Source of the DNA: Escherichia phage 04086
Sequence record: OR842557
Length of the DNA stretch: 64,000 nucleotides
Direction: 5' to 3' (one strand)
Part shown: in pieces, positions 3,911-62,685 of the stretch
Position numbering within the stretch: the first letter of the stretch is position 1
How the letters are laid out: each line of letters begins with the position of its first letter
Made by a program: the position numbers and the translations under genes
Notes under the pieces: generated by a model
Told to the model about the DNA's origin: nothing
Databases searched by the model: none
The model's input: the letters and a program-made list of their open reading frames with translations, nothing else

Positions 3911-4299
3911 TGAATATCAATAAAATGTATTCAGATTTAGACCCTGAAATGAGGACGTCTTGGAATAGAGACGTCGCTAAAGCTACGGGTGCACGTGCAG
4001 TTAAAAATAGTTTGTTAGGCATTATTACTACTCGCAAAGGTTCACGCCCTTTTATGCCTGAATTTGGGTGTGACATCAGTAACCAATTGTTTGAGAATAT
4101 TACTCCACTAATCACGGATACCATTAAGCGTAATATAGTTTCCGCTGTGCGGAACTTCGAACCCAGAATTTCTACCCTGGCTGTAGGTGTGACACCTGTG
4201 TACGATGATAACTCGATTATAGTGACCGTTCAGTTTAGTATAGTTGATGACCCGGATACATTAGAGCAAATTAGAATCCAGCTCTCACAGAGTGGTTAA
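3910..4299 (+). CDS. 25: Baseplate wedge protein gp25 (gpW / lysozyme-like fold)
   Basis: 129 aa; near-identical to remembered T4 gp25 segments (LLGIITTRKGSRPF, PEFGCD, SAVRNFEPRI). Confidence 0.85.
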   Translation: MNINKMYSDLDPEMRTSWNRDVAKATGARAVKNSLLGIITTRKGSRPFMPEFGCDISNQLFENITPLITDTIKRNIVSAVRNFEPRISTLAVGVTPVYDDNSIIVTVQFSIVDDPDTLEQIRIQLSQSG

Positions 4300-9100: not shown

Positions 9101-10105
9101 ATGTTCAAGAAATATAGCAGTCTCGAAAACCACTACAACAATAAGTTTATCGAAAAACTCCGTACTAACGGTTTGACCACTGGTGAATGGGTAGCACGTG
9201 AGAAGATTCATGGAACCAACTTTAGTTTAATCATAGAACGTGACGCAGTCACATGCGCCAAGCGCACTGGCCCTATCCTCCCTGCTGAAGATTTCTATGG
9301 CTATGAAATTGTACTTAAGAACTATGCTGATTCTATTAAATCTGTTCAACATCTAATTGAATCGATTAATTACCAGTCATACCAGATTTATGGCGAATTC
9401 GCTGGGACAGGTATCCAGAAGAATGTGGACTACGGTGATAAAGACTTTTATGTGTTCGATATCCGAGTTACTAAGGAAGATGGTACTGAATCTGTTCTAA
9501 CCGATACATTGATGGAAGCATTCTGTATTATCCATAAGTTCAAGGTTGCCCCATGTCTGGCCACTGGTAGCTTTGAAGACCTTATTAAACTTCCTAATGA
9601 TTTTGATTCAGTTGTTCCTGATTATAATTTTGCAGTGGATAACGCAGGCTTAACTATTGCAAACTCAACTGATTTTATTCCTAAGGTTGAAGGTAAAGTA
9701 TTCACGGCCGAAGGCTTTGTACTGAAACCTGATGTTCCTACCTGGCTTCCAAACGGAAATCGTGTAGCGATTAAATGTAAGAACTCTAAATTCAGTGAAA
9801 AGAAAAAGTCTGATAAACCTATTAAGGCTGCAGTGGTATTGTCCCAAGACGATATGGATTTGATGTGGCAATTCACCGATTATGTGACTGTTAACCGCAT
9901 TAACAATGTCATCAGTAAGATTGGCGAAGTATCTAAAAAGGATTTTGGAAAGGTAATGGGCTTGACAGTCCAAGATATCTTAGAAGAAGCTGCCCGTGAA
10001 GAATTAGAATTAACCGATGCAGAAAATCCTGTTGAAGTTAAAAAGCAACTTGTTGAGTGTGTAAAAGATACCCTACGAGCCGTATGGATTGAATTAGTGT
10101 CGTAA
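9101..10105 (+). CDS. rnlB: RNA ligase 2 (Rnl2)
   Basis: 334 aa; N-terminus [13 protein letters not shown] and [15 protein letters not shown] (ligase lysine motif) match remembered T4 Rnl2. Confidence 0.92.
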
Positions 10106-56905: not shown

Positions 56906-57138
56906 GCATTGCAATTTATATTAAATCTGAGTCATGTGATTCTTATCTGTATTCCTATGATACCGGAACATCAGAAGAGAAAATCAAAGAAGATTTAGAA
57001 AGCGATATGGATATGTTCTGTCCTATTGGTGACTATATGCTTCAAGTGTCTGATAATGAAAGTCCATCATCAGAAAATAGACTTCAAATTATTATGCAAG
57101 ATATTTTTAAACAATCATGGGAACGAGACGATGGGTAA
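56902..57138 (+). CDS. Hypothetical acidic protein
   Basis: 78 aa ORF with coupled start. Confidence 0.4.
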   Translation: MSIAIYIKSESCDSYLYSYDTGTSEEKIKEDLESDMDMFCPIGDYMLQVSDNESPSSENRLQIIMQDIFKQSWERDDG

Positions 57139-57580
57139 GAAAGCTAAGGAATCATCGGCAGGTATTTTGTTCATGACCGTTGATAAAGAACTGGTCATGG
57201 GTCGTGTAACAGGCTCTCGTAATCCAGAGAACATGCGTCATAAATGGGACATTCCTAAAGGTCATGTCGAACCAGGCGAAGAGCCTATTCAAGCGGCAAT
57301 GCGCGAAACCGAAGAAGAGATTGGATTCACAGCATACGATCCTGCGTTCCTGAAAGACCTAGGTGAGTTCAAATATTCAAGCAATAAGAATCTACATCTG
57401 TTCTTATATACAGTGCCTGTGGAACACGAGCAGTTCAAGGATTGCAAATGTACGGCTTACCATACGTTCCCTGATGGTCGCACGGTTCCTGAATTCGATG
57501 CGTTCGCTTTGATTAAACGTCCGCAATGGGAATATGTCATGGGCCCGTCGATGTATAAAGTTTTGAGTTCGCTCTTTTGA
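57131..57580 (+). CDS. nudE: Nudix hydrolase (NudE-like)
   Basis: Nudix box GHVEPGEEPIQAAMRETEEEIGF; ORF track 57026, ATG at 57131; lies upstream of e as T4 e.1. Confidence 0.8.
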   Translation: MGKKAKESSAGILFMTVDKELVMGRVTGSRNPENMRHKWDIPKGHVEPGEEPIQAAMRETEEEIGFTAYDPAFLKDLGEFKYSSNKNLHLFLYTVPVEHEQFKDCKCTAYHTFPDGRTVPEFDAFALIKRPQWEYVMGPSMYKVLSSLF

Positions 57581-57593
57581 TATAAATACCCGT

Positions 57594-58346
57594 ATGAATT
57601 ATTTAAAAATATATGAATCTTTAATAGAATCCACTATTAAAAGACCTCACATATGTGGGTACACCGAAAAACATCATATTTTACCGAAATCGATGGGTGG
57701 TAGTGATTCTATTGATAACTTAGTCGACCTCACCGCCCGAGAACATTTTATTGCACACCTATTATTGGCACGGATTTTTAAAAATCGCGAAATGTGGTCC
57801 GCTGTATATATGATGGCTTCAACAAGCTTGTCAAACTCTGACAGACATAGATGTTCATCGCATTTGTACGAATTATTGCGAGAACGTGCATCAATATATA
57901 ATTCAGGTGAAAATTCTCCAAATTGGGGAATTAAACGTTCCGAAGAAACACGATTAAAAATGTCAATTTCGAAAATGGGTTCCAAAAATCCAATGTATGG
58001 GATTCCTCAATGCTCGGAACACACCAACAAAATTAGTCTTGGTGTTATTGAAGCTTTTAAAAATCCGGAAATAAAAGAGCGACATAGGCAAAGTGTTTCC
58101 GGGGAACTCAATGGGTTTTATGGAAAGAACCATTCCGAAAAAAGTTTGGAAAAACAACGGAATGCAAAACGGAAAGGATTTCCTTGGGACAATTATTCAG
58201 AATTGTACCCAATTTGGGTTTCATTAAATTGTCCCAAACATCCAACATTCACAAATGAACTTGTTAAATTGGGATATCCTAAAAAGAAACTTGTTCGAAT
58301 AGTGGAAGAATTTAAAAATGAATATCTTCGAAATGTTACGCCTTGA
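57594..58346 (+). CDS. HNH homing endonuclease between nudE and e
   Basis: Motif [31 protein letters not shown]; N-terminus [11 protein letters not shown] paralogous to 43362..44012. Confidence 0.8.
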
Positions 58347-58806
58347 TGAAGGCTGTAAATTGGACTTATATAAGGATACTGAGGGCTACTATACTATTGG
58401 CATTGGCCAATTGATTACTAAGAACCCTTCTAAAGATGTTGCTCGTGCTGAACTTGATAAGCTTATGGGTCGAGTTTGTAATGGTCGTATTACTATGGCT
58501 GAAGCTGAACAACTCTTTAACCGATCGGTTGAAAATGCTCGTAGAGCTATTCTGCGTAATCCTAAATTGAAACCTGTTTATGATGTACTGGACGAAGTTC
58601 GTCGTTGTGCTTTAATTAACATGGTCTTCCAAATGGGTGAAGCAGGCGTAGCAGGGTTCACTAACTCTTTACGTATGCTCCAACAGAAACGTTGGAACGA
58701 TGCGGCAGTTAACCTGGCTCAATCCCGTTGGTATAAACAAACTCCTAATCGTGCTAAGCGTGTTATCGCCACCTTTAAAACCGGCACATGGGCTGCTTAT
58801 AGATAA
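58318..58806 (+). CDS. e: Endolysin (T4 lysozyme, gene e)
   Basis: 162 aa; [11 protein letters not shown], catalytic Glu11/Asp20 context [13 protein letters not shown], and [29 protein letters not shown] match T4 lysozyme. Confidence 0.97.
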
Positions 58807-58868: not shown

Positions 58869-59276
58869 ATGACTCGTATCAACCTTACCTTAGTATCTGA
58901 ATTGGCTGACCAACACTTAATGGCTGAATACCGTGAACTCCCACGGATTTTTGGTGCGGTTCGCGAACGTATTGCCAAAGGGCAAGGCTTCTCTGATATC
59001 CCTAAAGACTTCCGCCTTGGTGCAGGGCACGTCAAGTTCTTTTATGTCAAAATTGGATTTTTGTTCTTGCGACAAAATGCAATAATTGAGGAACTTCTGA
59101 AGCGTGGTTACCAGATTCAAAATACCCATGTAGACGTAGCGGATATTCCATTACGGCTCATGAACGATTTCACCCCATCCGAAGCTGATATAGCTTTAAG
59201 CCAAGCTCGATTGGACGAAAAAATTGCACAACGCCCTACCTGGTACAAACATTACGGCAAGGCTATTTACGCTTAA
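58869..59276 (+). CDS. denV: Endonuclease V (pyrimidine dimer DNA glycosylase)
   Basis: 135 aa; [26 protein letters not shown] and C-terminal QRPTWYK.YGKAIYA match T4 DenV. Confidence 0.93.
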
Positions 59277-59318: not shown

Positions 59319-59678
59319 ATGAAAACTTACCAACAATTTATTACTGAATCTACTCAGCGCATTAACGAAGCTATGTCTCCTGAACAGTTGGCTAAAGCTA
59401 AAGAAGGGCTGAACCCGTCCGAAGTCTTTAAAGTTACAGGTAAAGATTTCTCTTCCATGGCCACTAACCAAAGTCTGGCTAAAGAACTTAAATCTAAATC
59501 TAACTTCATTCATGCTACATGGAATGGTGATTCTCTTACTTCAATAAGTGTGTACAATAAAAAAGGTCTCCTTAAGAGTTCTTATGGCGCGGATGCCATC
59601 CGTGTTTCTAAATCAGATTGGCATAAAAACACTACTAAAGCAGAAAAACCTCATAACCCGGCACTTGACCATCTTTAA
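59319..59678 (+). CDS. Internal-protein-like protein with capsid targeting sequence
   Basis: N-terminus MKTYQQFITE; 119 aa; RBS taaggaataatATG. Confidence 0.6.
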   Translation: MKTYQQFITESTQRINEAMSPEQLAKAKEGLNPSEVFKVTGKDFSSMATNQSLAKELKSKSNFIHATWNGDSLTSISVYNKKGLLKSSYGADAIRVSKSDWHKNTTKAEKPHNPALDHL

Positions 59679-59686
59679 GGAATAAT

Positions 59687-59944
59687 ATGAAAACTTACCA
59701 GCAATTTATCGCAGAATCCACTTTAGTTTCTAAACGTTGGAATATGATTGTAAACGTTAAACCTTCCGGCACTGAAGTTTCTATGGCCGACCCTAATGAT
59801 GACGAACTTGAGCACGCTTTTAGCTCTAAAGAAACTGACGAGAAAGTGGTTAAGCAACTGGTTGCTGATGCAGACCAACTTCGTAAAGTAGCAGATGTTG
59901 TTAAGCTGTTTACTAAGAAAGGTTTTAAACACGAAGAGCGTTAA
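59687..59944 (+). CDS. Internal-protein-like protein with capsid targeting sequence
   Basis: N-terminus MKTYQQFIAE; 85 aa; same RBS context as 59319. Confidence 0.6.
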   Translation: MKTYQQFIAESTLVSKRWNMIVNVKPSGTEVSMADPNDDELEHAFSSKETDEKVVKQLVADADQLRKVADVVKLFTKKGFKHEER

Positions 59945-60101
59945 TTAGCATTTTAAATGGGAGCAAGCTGGACCTCGCAATTCTGTGAGGGACTCCCGCC
60001 AACCTGTAATAAGGTCGAGCCCAAGTGCGGTAATGGGTAAATGCAGAAAGGGACGAATTAATGTGCCAAGGAATGGCCCCTCCACTTAAAAAGAGACAAT
60101 T
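59945..60101 (+). other. GC-rich structured non-coding segment (candidate small RNA or leader)
   Basis: 157 nt without ORF; nested inverted repeats (gggag..ctccc, cctcg..tgagg); GC content well above flanks. Confidence 0.2.
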
Positions 60102-60644
60102 ATGAAATTTTTAACCGGTAGTTATCTATCCCTGATGAATGCTTTTGCAAACCATTCTGATGCTAGAGTAGAACACATTTGTAATAGTGGGTTTTATGTA
60201 CCTGATTCACAAACCCTGTTTAAAGAATGCTGCACCTTAAAACTTGATGGTGGGCGCCAATCCGGTAAAACTAAAGCAGTATCCATTTTTGCCACAGAAT
60301 GGTTAGCTAATGGCGGCTCTATTGTTATTTTATCTAATAACACGGCATATGCCAATGTTTCGGCTAGTGCAATCCGAAAGGAATATTTTAATAACCATAC
60401 AGAAAGTATTAAGTACCGTTTGTACACTGATTCTGTTCGTAGTTTTATTGGTAATACTGCATGCAAATTCCGTGGATTATCGCTTTCACGTGTTCTGTAT
60501 ATAATTGATGAGCCTGTTAAAACACCTAATATGGATAAGATTTATGATGCCCATATAAAGGTGGTGCAACATTGCTGTCATGCATCATGTGTCGAAACCA
60601 ATCAAACTGCTCGTCCTCTGTTCTTTGTGATAGGAATGCAATGA
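60102..60644 (+). CDS. Small P-loop NTPase-like protein
   Basis: 180 aa; Walker A-like GGRQSGKT and Walker B-like VLYIIDEP. Confidence 0.45.
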   Translation: MKFLTGSYLSLMNAFANHSDARVEHICNSGFYVPDSQTLFKECCTLKLDGGRQSGKTKAVSIFATEWLANGGSIVILSNNTAYANVSASAIRKEYFNNHTESIKYRLYTDSVRSFIGNTACKFRGLSLSRVLYIIDEPVKTPNMDKIYDAHIKVVQHCCHASCVETNQTARPLFFVIGMQ

Positions 60645-61950: not shown

Positions 61951-62685
61951 ATGGAAACTATAAAATATCCATATGACTACTATAAAATAATAAATGACGC
62001 CTTATCTAGGGATACACCTAATGATGCCTATACAGAAAAGCACCATATAATACCGAGTTGCGTTGGTGGTCCTGACACTCAAGACAATTTAGTTGAGCTT
62101 TATGCTGACGAACATTATTTGGCCCATATGTATCTAGCCAAAGCTAATCCAAACCACTATGGGTTGAATTTTGCTTGGCTAAATATGAGCTCTACTTCAA
62201 ATTCAAAACAAAGGTCTTATTTTGTAGATTCTGAAAATTATAAGTTGGCTAAAGAATCATTTTCAAAATTGCAATCTATTAATAAAATTTTATTTTTCTC
62301 TAAAAAGGAAAATAGGGCTGCTCATTCAATGGCTTTAATAAAGTATTTTGAAAAGGAAGGCTCTAAAGAACGGCTCAAAGAAATTTTAAATTCGCCAAAA
62401 GTAAAAGCTAAAATGTCTGAAAAACGGGTTAAGTATTTTGAAAATCCTGAAAATAGACAAAAATTTAAAGCCATACAAAATTCTAAAGAAACTATAGAAA
62501 GGAAAAAAGCCTCTTTGCGGAAATCCCCTATATGGCATGAACCGATGTATTCACAATTATATAAATTATGGGTAGATAATAATAAACTCAAGTGTGGAAG
62601 ATTTAGTAAAATCGCAATTAAGAACGGCTTCCCTAATGTAGATTACCGAGGACTTATTGATTATGATTTTTCTAAAAAAACTTAA
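61951..62685 (+). CDS. HNH homing endonuclease (third copy, more divergent)
   Basis: Motif EKHHIIPSCVGGPDTQDNLVELYADEHYLAH; basic Lys-rich C-terminal half. Confidence 0.7.
   Translation: METIKYPYDYYKIINDALSRDTPNDAYTEKHHIIPSCVGGPDTQDNLVELYADEHYLAHMYLAKANPNHYGLNFAWLNMSSTSNSKQRSYFVDSENYKLAKESFSKLQSINKILFFSKKENRAAHSMALIKYFEKEGSKERLKEILNSPKVKAKMSEKRVKYFENPENRQKFKAIQNSKETIERKKASLRKSPIWHEPMYSQLYKLWVDNNKLKCGRFSKIAIKNGFPNVDYRGLIDYDFSKKT

Follow-up and report, generated by a model that had tools for sequence, protein, structure and literature searches.

A candidate RNA family with a pseudoknot-clamped three-way junction in T4-like and other phages

The locus

The 64,000-nucleotide (nt) stretch of DNA from Escherichia phage 04086 analysed here in its entirety (record OR842557; hereinafter, the window) contains a 157-nt spacer on the + strand, between the stop codon of an internal-protein-like gene and the ATG of a gene homologous to vs.8 of bacteriophage T4. 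An earlier note, made from the letters of the window alone, had described this spacer as a GC-rich, structured segment that could be a small RNA, a structured leader of the downstream operon or a remnant of a mobile element. Comparative analysis identifies the + strand of the spacer as one copy of a widespread, uncurated family of phage RNAs with a predicted pseudoknot-clamped three-way junction. The window comes from a T4-like phage of the JS98/WG01 group, the nearest records being Salmonella phage ABTNLsp5, WG01, JS98 and IME08, and the genes around the spacer are the following:

57026-57580, + strand: nudE-like gene
57594-58346, + strand: HNH endonuclease gene
58318-58806, + strand: lysozyme gene e
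58869-59276, + strand: denV
59319-59678, + strand: first gene with a product starting with MKTYQQFI, annotated in relatives as "internal head protein"
59687-59944, + strand: second gene with a product starting with MKTYQQFI (internal-protein-like)
59945-60101, + strand: the 157-nt spacer, from the stop of the second internal-protein-like gene to the ATG of the vs.8-like gene
60102-60644, + strand: P-loop gene homologous to T4 vs.8, followed by a vs.7-like gene

The vs.8 gene encodes an ATPase that is related to the ATPase domain of the terminase (PMC13601566), and the vs operon of T4 encodes both immune-evasion functions and immune triggers (PMC13243611, PMC13601566). The only transfer RNA (tRNA) genes that ARAGORN detects in the window, those for tRNA-Met and tRNA-Arg, are located at 47915-48071, 12 kb from the element.

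The boundaries that the earlier note gave for the spacer, 59945-60101, are correct, the second internal-protein-like gene ending immediately before it and the vs.8-like ATG following at 60102, and the enrichment in GC is real: the GC fraction is 0.471 in the spacer vs 0.38 and 0.37 in the 500-nt flanks and 0.396 on average in the window, which places the spacer in the top 5.6% of 157-nt segments; the folded part (59959-60046, 88 nt), with a GC fraction of 0.557, is in the top 0.2% of 88-nt segments. The nested inverted repeats, GGGAG (59959-59963)/CTCCC (59993-59997) around CCTCGCA (59973-59979)/TGTGAGG (59984-59990), also exist and, judging from the comparative evidence below, correspond to actual helices of a structured + strand RNA; these are, however, only two of six helices, and the pseudoknot and the three-way junction had been missed. 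As the note had it, there is no promoter-like or terminator-like site within 59945-60101, neither an intrinsic terminator nor a -35/-10 promoter cassette. Taken literally, the statement that the spacer has no open reading frame (ORF) is wrong, given mechanical ORFs of 34 amino acids (+ strand) and 46 amino acids (- strand), but it is right in the sense that no frame is open across lineages. The minimum free energy of the spacer folded on its own is no better than that of shuffled sequences (z = +0.36 for the + strand and -0.59 for the - strand), so that the single sequence alone is indistinguishable from chance and the proof is comparative.

Distribution of the element

A BLAST search started with the spacer against 50,697 phage records matches 977 of these, including Tequatrovirus, Mosigvirus and Gelderlandvirus as well as T4-like phages of Klebsiella, Enterobacter and Edwardsiella. 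The match in T4 itself (88% over 120 nt) lies between denV and vs.8. In addition, a core of about 50 nt, with 90-97% identity, is found in phages outside the T4-like group, namely rV5-like Vequintavirus and one phapecoctavirus-like phage, and pattern scans add the Pseudomonas syringae phage KIL1, a 360-kb jumbo phage contig, and saline and marine metagenome contigs. The host genera spanned thus include Escherichia, Klebsiella, Salmonella, Edwardsiella and Pseudomonas, besides the marine contigs. The element is present in PsgM04F and absent from closely related phapecoctaviruses. Conservation and covariation in relatives, the test that the earlier note had itself proposed, are both found, the former very broad and the latter strong, and the small-RNA option of that note is accordingly well supported by the comparative data.

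Outside phages, only chance matches were obtained in bacterial and archaeal genomes (one per species, 185,579 species); the bacterial ones, which fall in GC-rich metagenome-assembled genomes, were rejected on this ground. There is no copy in 5,426 complete E. coli genomes. A single "plasmid" in PLSDB, CP057073.1 (H213; 137.6 kb), matches through an rV5-type core; it is probably the genome of an rV5-like phage. The BLAST counts also include 9 and 19 records of Campylobacter phages, in which the copies were not located; the first 50 kb of CP220 (L065) is negative.

The PEi20-like (Edwardsiella-type) phages contain two complete tandem copies upstream of vs.8 (L036 5092-5254 and L038 9017-9180; L numbers designate loci). 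The second copy in both loci is diverged (35-42 bits) but keeps P1, the pseudoknot (PK), P3, P4 and P5, as defined below, through compensatory changes.

The predicted fold

The conserved fold, referred to as module 1, consists of the following parts:

59959-60046, + strand: module 1, the whole conserved fold (P1, PK, P2 and P3/P4/P5), delineated from a covariance model, helix coordinates and homology
59959-59963 / 59993-59997, + strand: P1, closing helix GGGAG/CUCCC, covarying between lineages
59968-59970, + strand: 5' strand of PK, CUG, in the loop of P1, pairing with CAG at 60044-60046
59973-59990, + strand: P2, hairpin CCUCGCA/UGUGAGG with loop AUUC and GA on both sides
59998-60001 / 60034 and 60036-60038, + strand: P3, helix that closes the junction, (G)CCA paired with U 60034 and GG(U) 60036-60038, with G 60035 bulged
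60002-60015, + strand: P4, hairpin ACCU-GUAAUA-AGGU, near-invariant, in part since the search patterns demanded it
60016-60018, + strand: J4/5, CGA
60019-60020 / 60027-60028, + strand: P5, GC/GC with loop CCAAGU
60029-60033, + strand: J5/3, GGUAA
60044-60046, + strand: 3' strand of PK, CAG

The core is the three-way junction of P3, P4 and P5. The covariance model R1, built with a first P5 pairing model that was later replaced, matches the window at 59991-60042 with 74 bits (E 8e-22), and this is the sole copy in the window. The pair statistics are derived from 58 distinct copies of the core, which align without gaps. Because the loci were gathered with patterns taken from the core, which required GGUAA and P4, its invariance is inflated. 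The three inner pairs of P3 are almost always formed and vary in composition: pair 11-44 forms in 58 of the 58 copies with 4 pair types, pair 10-46 in all 58 with 5 pair types, and pair 9-47 in 57 with 3 pair types. The outermost pair, 8-48, is formed in only 34/58 copies, and the bulged nucleotide is G in 56/58. None of 500 column shuffles matches the observed covariation, and sliding the 3' partners lowers pairing from 96% to 22-39%.

P4 shows compensatory variants in two lineages, represented by Pseudomonas phage KIL1 (GCCA/UGGU) and the second copy of L036 (GCCU/AGGC); its hexaloop follows the pattern GURNNA, with GUAAUA in 34/58 copies. For P5, the divergent copies establish the pairs G29-C38 and C30-G37, the latter of which is formed in 57/58 copies (C-G in 47, U-A in 7, G-C in 2 and A-U in 1, with one mismatch). 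The first P5 model (pairs 26-39, 27-38, 29-36 and 30-35) was disproved by these copies and replaced by 29-38 and 30-37; likewise, a pairing of CCGC just upstream with GCGG of the core was rejected because, by eye, it is not kept in other lineages. The joining segment J4/5 is CGA in 48 copies, CAA in 7 and CA in 3, and J5/3 is GGUAA in all copies, as the patterns required. The presence of G-U pairs in P3, P4 and P5, which would be A-C on the opposite strand, indicates that the RNA strand is the + strand. Thus, in the copies compared, the junction strands (C-G/A-A and GGUAA), the bulged G and P4 are almost invariant across very different phage lineages.

This junction is embedded in a 5' domain that evolves much more freely in sequence. 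The 3' strand of P1 consists of the five nucleotides just 5' of P3 (with a gap between P1 and P3 of 0-1 nt), and its partner strand is located 25-56 nt upstream. The variants include GGGAA/UUCCC (T4), GGGG/CCCC, GGAAC/GUUCC, GAGUG/CACUC, AAAGG/CCUUU and AAAGA/UCUUU, among others, and an unbiased complementarity search recovers P1 in 12 of 13 lineages. The 3' strand of PK is a stretch 1-10 nt 3' of P3. In the window and in T4, PK has only 3 base pairs (CUG/CAG), whereas in other lineages it comprises 4-8 covarying base pairs, e.g., CCAGC/GCUGG, AUAGCAGA/UUUGCUAU, AAACCA/UGGUUU, UCGCCGA/UCGGUGA, CAAGAAC/GUUCUUG, GGGUA/UACCC and CGGA/UCCG. Since a full-length MAFFT alignment misaligned the 5' strands, the support for P1 and PK comes from permutation tests, an automatic search for the longest helix being too noisy. 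Complementarity within the lineage is 162 vs 127.9 +/- 5.3 across lineages for P1, and 160 vs 104.9 +/- 7.1 for PK, values that are reached in 0 of 5,000 permutations in either case. Taken together, these comparisons predict that P1 and PK clamp the three-way junction P3/P4/P5 in a fold of about 88 nt. Nothing is conserved upstream of P1. A T4-type copy in L018 at about 5870 (IMGVR_UViG_2974739009) carries AAGAA in place of GGGAA in the 5' strand of P1, which breaks this helix but leaves the rest intact.

P2 also varies in a compensatory manner (CCUCAU/AUGAGG in T4, CACAU/AUGUG, CUACG/CGUAG, CACC/GGUG and CUC/GAG) and is dispensable, being absent from the phapecoctavirus-like form and substituted by a larger conserved domain in JS98-like phages. 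In copies of the latter type (L005 at about 4190-4232; also L003, L011 and L028), a conserved insertion of about 36 nt, CCUCUCCUCAUGAACGUCG(C/U)GUCCUCUGAGUGA(U/A)GG, takes the place of P2 and has no match in Rfam. A resemblance to hammerhead or twister ribozymes (CUGAGUGA in the JS98-type insertion; CCCAAG..GCGG) was considered and rejected, given that the core motifs do not fit and there is no Rfam match. An outer stem, GCAUUU (59948-59953)/AAAUGC (60039-60044), might form around the fold in the window, and some relatives have UAUUUAC/GUAAAUA at this place, with a G-C to A-U change that is matched on both strands. This stem, which is AU-rich and present in only some T4-type copies, is uncertain and could be an alternative to the weak 3-base-pair PK or a chance complementarity.

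The T4-like module and the start of vs.8

In T4-like phages only, a second conserved module separates the fold from the downstream gene:

60047-60080, + strand: module 2, (A/U)GGAC...GUGCCAAGGAAUGGCCCC, with hairpin GCCA (60065-60068)/UGGC (60074-60077) and loop AGGAA
60090-60104, + strand: probable Shine-Dalgarno sequence AGAGA, followed by the ATG of the gene for the vs.8-like ATPase

The motif common to the T4-like copies, (A/U)GGAC...GUGCCANGGAAUGGCCC with the GCCA/UGGC hairpin, is located just 5' of the downstream start codon and is kept in all T4-like subgroups, with one compensatory variant, GCCG..CGGGC, in a Gelderlandvirus (L003); an insertion between modules 1 and 2 is tolerated (L012). 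Homologs of vs.8 are identified by tblastn downstream of the element in 27 T4-like loci, in 26 of which the element is directly 5' of vs.8; in the remaining one, L015, an internal-protein-like gene intervenes. In all 27 loci, Vs.8 homology begins at the downstream ATG. In the T4 record (T4T, HM137666.1; L001 1527-1640, corresponding to 59984-60101 in the window), by contrast, the ATG of vs.8 is annotated inside the element, and the frame of this extension is closed by a stop codon in the window. These observations indicate that the T4 vs.8 start is probably placed 114 nt too far upstream, i.e., that the gene model is probably over-extended.

No conserved reading frame spans the element, the best frame being open in 10 of 20 lineages. 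The identity of Vs.8 falls to 35-38% in comparisons in which the junction core is more than 90% identical, although the figure for the core is inflated by the pattern-based retrieval. Records of other phages label the element "hypothetical protein" or "terminator" (e.g., MZ726795.1). In KIL1 (L048, KU130126.1), the hypothetical protein vB_PsyM_KIL1_0040 is annotated at 689-931 on the minus strand, antisense over the element, between tRNA-Met and tRNA-Arg; this is probably a spurious ORF call.

Association with tRNA arrays outside T4-like phages

Outside T4-like phages, the genomic context of the element is dominated by tRNA genes. Same-strand tRNA genes are found near the element in 36 of 47 non-T4-like loci, many of the other 11 loci spanning only 1-2 kb, and wherever tRNAs are nearby the element is on their strand (36/36). 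The phages with such tRNA arrays include rV5-like and phapecoctavirus-like phages, KIL1, the 360-kb jumbo contig and marine contigs. Some copies begin 4-20 nt after a tRNA, e.g., 4 nt past the CCA in L084. In L033, an intrinsic terminator is located 3' of the element. An outer closing stem that joins the ends of the element and covaries is seen in the phapecoctavirus-like form and L052 (GUUGUGAC/GUCACAAC vs AAUGU/GCAUU). None of the non-T4-like loci encodes a vs.8 homolog, and no neighboring protein common to the lineages was seen.

Two side observations concern these arrays. In the tRNA clusters of rV5-like phages, ARAGORN predicts a tRNA-like gene of 98-99 nt with a four-base anticodon (atcc), at L017 1714-1812, L070 2501-2599, L104 270-367 and L106 3782-3880. 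The phapecoctavirus-like cluster L029 contains, at 9535-9610, a tRNA predicted by ARAGORN with a CUA, i.e., amber-reading, anticodon.

Comparison with known RNAs

The Rfam search that the earlier note had suggested yields no family for the element. With the 4,227 models of Rfam 15, only two tRNAs located elsewhere in the window reach gathering scores, and no model overlaps the element at E <= 10; a search of six loci representing the T4, rV5-like, Gelderland, phapecoctavirus-like and JS98-like forms likewise gives no match at E <= 10. Neither ARAGORN, which looks for tRNA and transfer-messenger RNA, nor RF00005 detects a cloverleaf at the element. A literature search with gene names and sequence strings finds no description, although a catalog of 10,006 candidate viral RNAs (PMC10690425) could list the element unnamed.

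The closest analogs in terms of genomic context are stable processed small RNAs that are encoded in phage tRNA clusters and have no known role: RNAC and RNAD (species 1 and 2) of T4 (PMC3014915, PMC9697503) and ncRNA2 of phage PAK_P3 (PMC10914365). All of these are phage-encoded RNAs of about 100-140 nt that are co-oriented with tRNA genes and probably cut from longer transcripts, and outside T4-like phages the element fills the same kind of slot. It differs in showing no sequence or model kinship to these RNAs, in occurring in far more phage lineages than are known for them and, as regards RNAC and RNAD, in lying outside the tRNA cluster in T4-like phages. None of the core motifs occurs in the RNAC probe sequence (PMC9697503), and in the whole 64-kb window, tRNA region included, R1 detects one copy only. 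As a candidate homolog, PAK_P3 sRNA2 was rejected because R1 finds nothing in the PAK_P3 sRNA region; it is a different RNA.

Among ribozymes, the comparison of interest is with the hepatitis delta virus (HDV)-like class. The order of strands in the element (P1-5', PK-5', hairpin, P1-3', elaborated domain, linker, PK-3') is the nested double-pseudoknot order of HDV-like and theta ribozymes (P1, P2, P3, P1', P4, P2'), and in both cases there is no sequence requirement upstream of P1. HDV-like ribozymes always contain a short P3 with L3 that forms the active site together with P1.1, and have a G-U pair at the base of P1. In the element, the equivalent of the P3/L3 hairpin is dispensable, the phapecoctavirus-like form having no hairpin in the loop of P1, and all 17 lineages listed have G-C or A-U, rather than G-U, as the basal pair of P1. 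The position of P4 is occupied by a highly conserved three-way junction, not by a variable or missing helix, and there is no Rfam match to HDV. The theta ribozymes are HDV-like, occur in phages and are often associated with tRNAs; the catalytic cytosine of HDV-like ribozymes is the first position of J4/2, and its change from C to U inactivates them (PMC10879173). The element has no C at the corresponding position, right after the 3' strand of P3: of 44 distinct copies, 29 have U, 10 have A and 5 have G there.

Two further types of structured RNA are relevant. The glutamine riboswitch has an aptamer built of a three-way junction and a pseudoknot. The element resembles such aptamers in its compact junction-plus-pseudoknot architecture, the invariant junction nucleotides, its position 5' of a gene in T4-like phages and its tandem copies; it differs in having no consistent class of downstream gene and no expression platform, in its location inside tRNA arrays, and in the lack of an Rfam match. 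ROOL and GOLLD are orphan structured RNAs of phages and prophages that are 500-800 nt long, are often encoded beside tRNA genes and are included in Rfam; the element, at about 90-125 nt, is much shorter and unrelated in sequence. On the comparative evidence, the element seems to represent a previously undescribed family of orphan structured phage RNAs, with T4 itself among the carriers.

Although few phages have been studied as thoroughly as T4, this RNA, with its six covarying helices, its pseudoknot and a junction that hardly varies, stayed unannotated, the labels in the records being nothing at all, "hypothetical protein", "terminator" or the start of vs.8. As of 2010, a review of post-transcriptional control in T4 listed no functionally characterized riboswitch or trans-acting regulatory RNA of this phage (PMC3014915). 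The present comparison yields an alignment that can seed a new RNA family, and it corrects gene models, in particular the T4 vs.8 start and spurious ORFs.

Functional interpretation

The junction is better conserved than the neighboring proteins, and the RNA extends across phage families and host genera, which points to a function connected with something universal. The reading favored here, with a probability of roughly 0.45, is that of a stable processed small RNA, with the invariant surface formed by the junction and P4 acting on a conserved partner. In the window, the RNA would be transcribed within a polycistronic message that extends from the internal-protein genes to vs.8. It would then be trimmed out, as are the tRNAs that adjoin the element in other phages, and accumulate as a stable small RNA, the junction and P4 surface of which could bind the partner, most plausibly one that belongs to tRNA metabolism, translation or RNA processing, or else a host factor directed against them. 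The T4-like-specific hairpin before the ribosome-binding site of vs.8 would be a separate accessory element. This reading is suggested by the tRNA-array setting, the closing stem, the terminator and the independence of any one neighboring gene.

Several observations weigh against a stable small RNA. Its accumulation as a discrete species is deduced from context only, and there is no candidate for a partner, target or ligand. In T4-like phages, 12 kb separate the element from the tRNA genes, and a protein gene always follows immediately, with a conserved extra hairpin at its ribosome-binding site, an arrangement that resembles a leader. In L033, the terminator is located between the element and a gene without room for a promoter of its own, which is a riboswitch-like layout. 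Finally, the invariance of the core is inflated by retrieval with core-derived patterns.

Alternatively, the element might be a new self-cleaving or RNA-processing ribozyme that cuts the polycistronic transcript at or near its own boundary, splitting the vs.8 messenger RNA (mRNA) from the upstream message in T4-like phages and freeing the units of tRNA arrays in other phages. The strand order shared with HDV-like ribozymes, the clustering of invariant nucleotides in the junctions and the lack of conservation 5' of P1 are compatible with this possibility, as are the sporadic occurrence over unrelated phages, the varied neighbors and the tandem copies in PEi20-like phages, which are typical traits of small ribozymes. 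Moreover, some copies start a few nucleotides past the 3' end of a tRNA (in L084, 4 nt after the CCA), similarly to theta ribozymes (PMC10879173). Nevertheless, a ribozyme appears unlikely: the HDV catalytic cytosine position is never C (0/44), the equivalent of the HDV P3/L3 hairpin is missing in the phapecoctavirus-like form, no ribozyme family of Rfam 15 matches any form at E <= 10, most copies are tens to hundreds of nucleotides from the nearest tRNA, and there is no candidate cleavage site. A stable product would also account better for the outer closing stem and the terminator.

A cis-acting leader, i.e., a riboswitch-like aptamer or a protein-binding operator that controls downstream read-through, processing or translation, seems more doubtful still. 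In the window, its target would be the vs.8-vs.x operon, which in T4 carries anti-defense genes, in line with the immune-evasion functions and immune triggers encoded there (PMC13243611, PMC13601566). The location directly 5' of vs.8 in 26 of 27 T4-like loci, the conservation of module 2 beside the ribosome-binding site, the aptamer-like combination of a three-way junction, a pseudoknot and invariant junction bases, the tandem copies in PEi20-like phages and the order of element, terminator and gene in L033, where the gene has no room for its own promoter, all fit such a role. However, the downstream features are unlike one another (vs.8, an internal-protein-like gene, tRNAs, a gene for a 629-amino-acid protein and, in rV5-like phages, a gene with its own promoter), there is no conserved alternative pairing of the aptamer 3' strands with a terminator or with a Shine-Dalgarno sequester, and the unit in the phapecoctavirus-like array is closed by its own outer stem. 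Because the same RNA is present in tRNA arrays of phages that lack vs.8, the structured leader of the downstream operon envisaged in the earlier note is unlikely as a general function; a local role in cis, for which the accessory T4-like-specific hairpin next to the vs.8 ribosome-binding site leaves room, is compatible with the data.

Conservation at the level of DNA or protein, be it a mobile-element remnant or end, a protein-binding DNA site, or coding sequence such as the N-terminal extension annotated for Vs.8 in T4 or the small ORFs called in some records, is very improbable: it would accommodate the vs.8 start that T4T annotates inside the element, the hypothetical ORFs called over it in KIL1 and several other records, the HNH homing-endonuclease genes nearby in the window, and the presence in PsgM04F but not in close phapecoctaviruses, which suggests gain and loss as a cassette, but the substitutions are compensatory for RNA pairing, G-U being tolerated on only one of the strands, even the best reading frame is open in just 10 of 20 lineages, Vs.8 homology starts from the downstream ATG in all relatives with the extension stopped in the window, and, contrary to the mobile-element option of the earlier note, there is a single copy per window with no terminal or flanking repeats and no transposase.

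A more far-reaching proposal, that many large virulent phages including T4 carry, in the element, an RNA of a new class that either is catalytic or binds a ligand or a protein, is rather improbable. In its most striking version, the element would be a putative self-cleaving ribozyme with an HDV-like double-pseudoknot topology and an active site derived from the conserved three-way junction; if so, its role would be that of a cassette for transcript processing, both within tRNA arrays and in front of the vs.8 anti-defense operon. In a second version, it would be a putative RNA decoy, or sponge, against a host factor that targets tRNA or phage RNA. The immune-evasion genes and immune triggers in the T4 vs operon (PMC13243611, PMC13601566) make an anti-defense role worth testing, although nothing in the present analysis shows such a role. 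The placement in tRNA arrays and, in T4-like phages, beside an anti-defense operon yields concrete hypotheses open to testing in a phage amenable to genetics.

Additional observations

Several features of the examined genomes are unrelated to the RNA itself. The two genes upstream of the spacer (59319-59678 and 59687-59944) encode proteins with a common N-terminus, MKTYQQFI(T/A)ES, the typical capsid-targeting sequence of T4 internal proteins, and unrelated remainders; in L015 and L053, a similar MKTYQQFI-type gene is located between the RNA element and vs.8. The gene order in the window is e, denV, two internal-protein genes and vs.8, vs ipIII, ipII, denV and vs.8 in T4. Two genes for HNH-type homing endonuclease-like proteins (57594-58346 and 61951-62685; ...EKHHI(L/I)P...GG...) flank the region, the first of which overlaps the start of the lysozyme gene e by 29 nt. 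PsgM04F (L004, OR584014.1, "Pseudomonas phage") shares stretches of 100% identity with phapecoctaviruses of E. coli, and PsgM02F (H207) resembles an E. coli T4-like phage; given this similarity to E. coli phages, the Pseudomonas host labels of both look doubtful.

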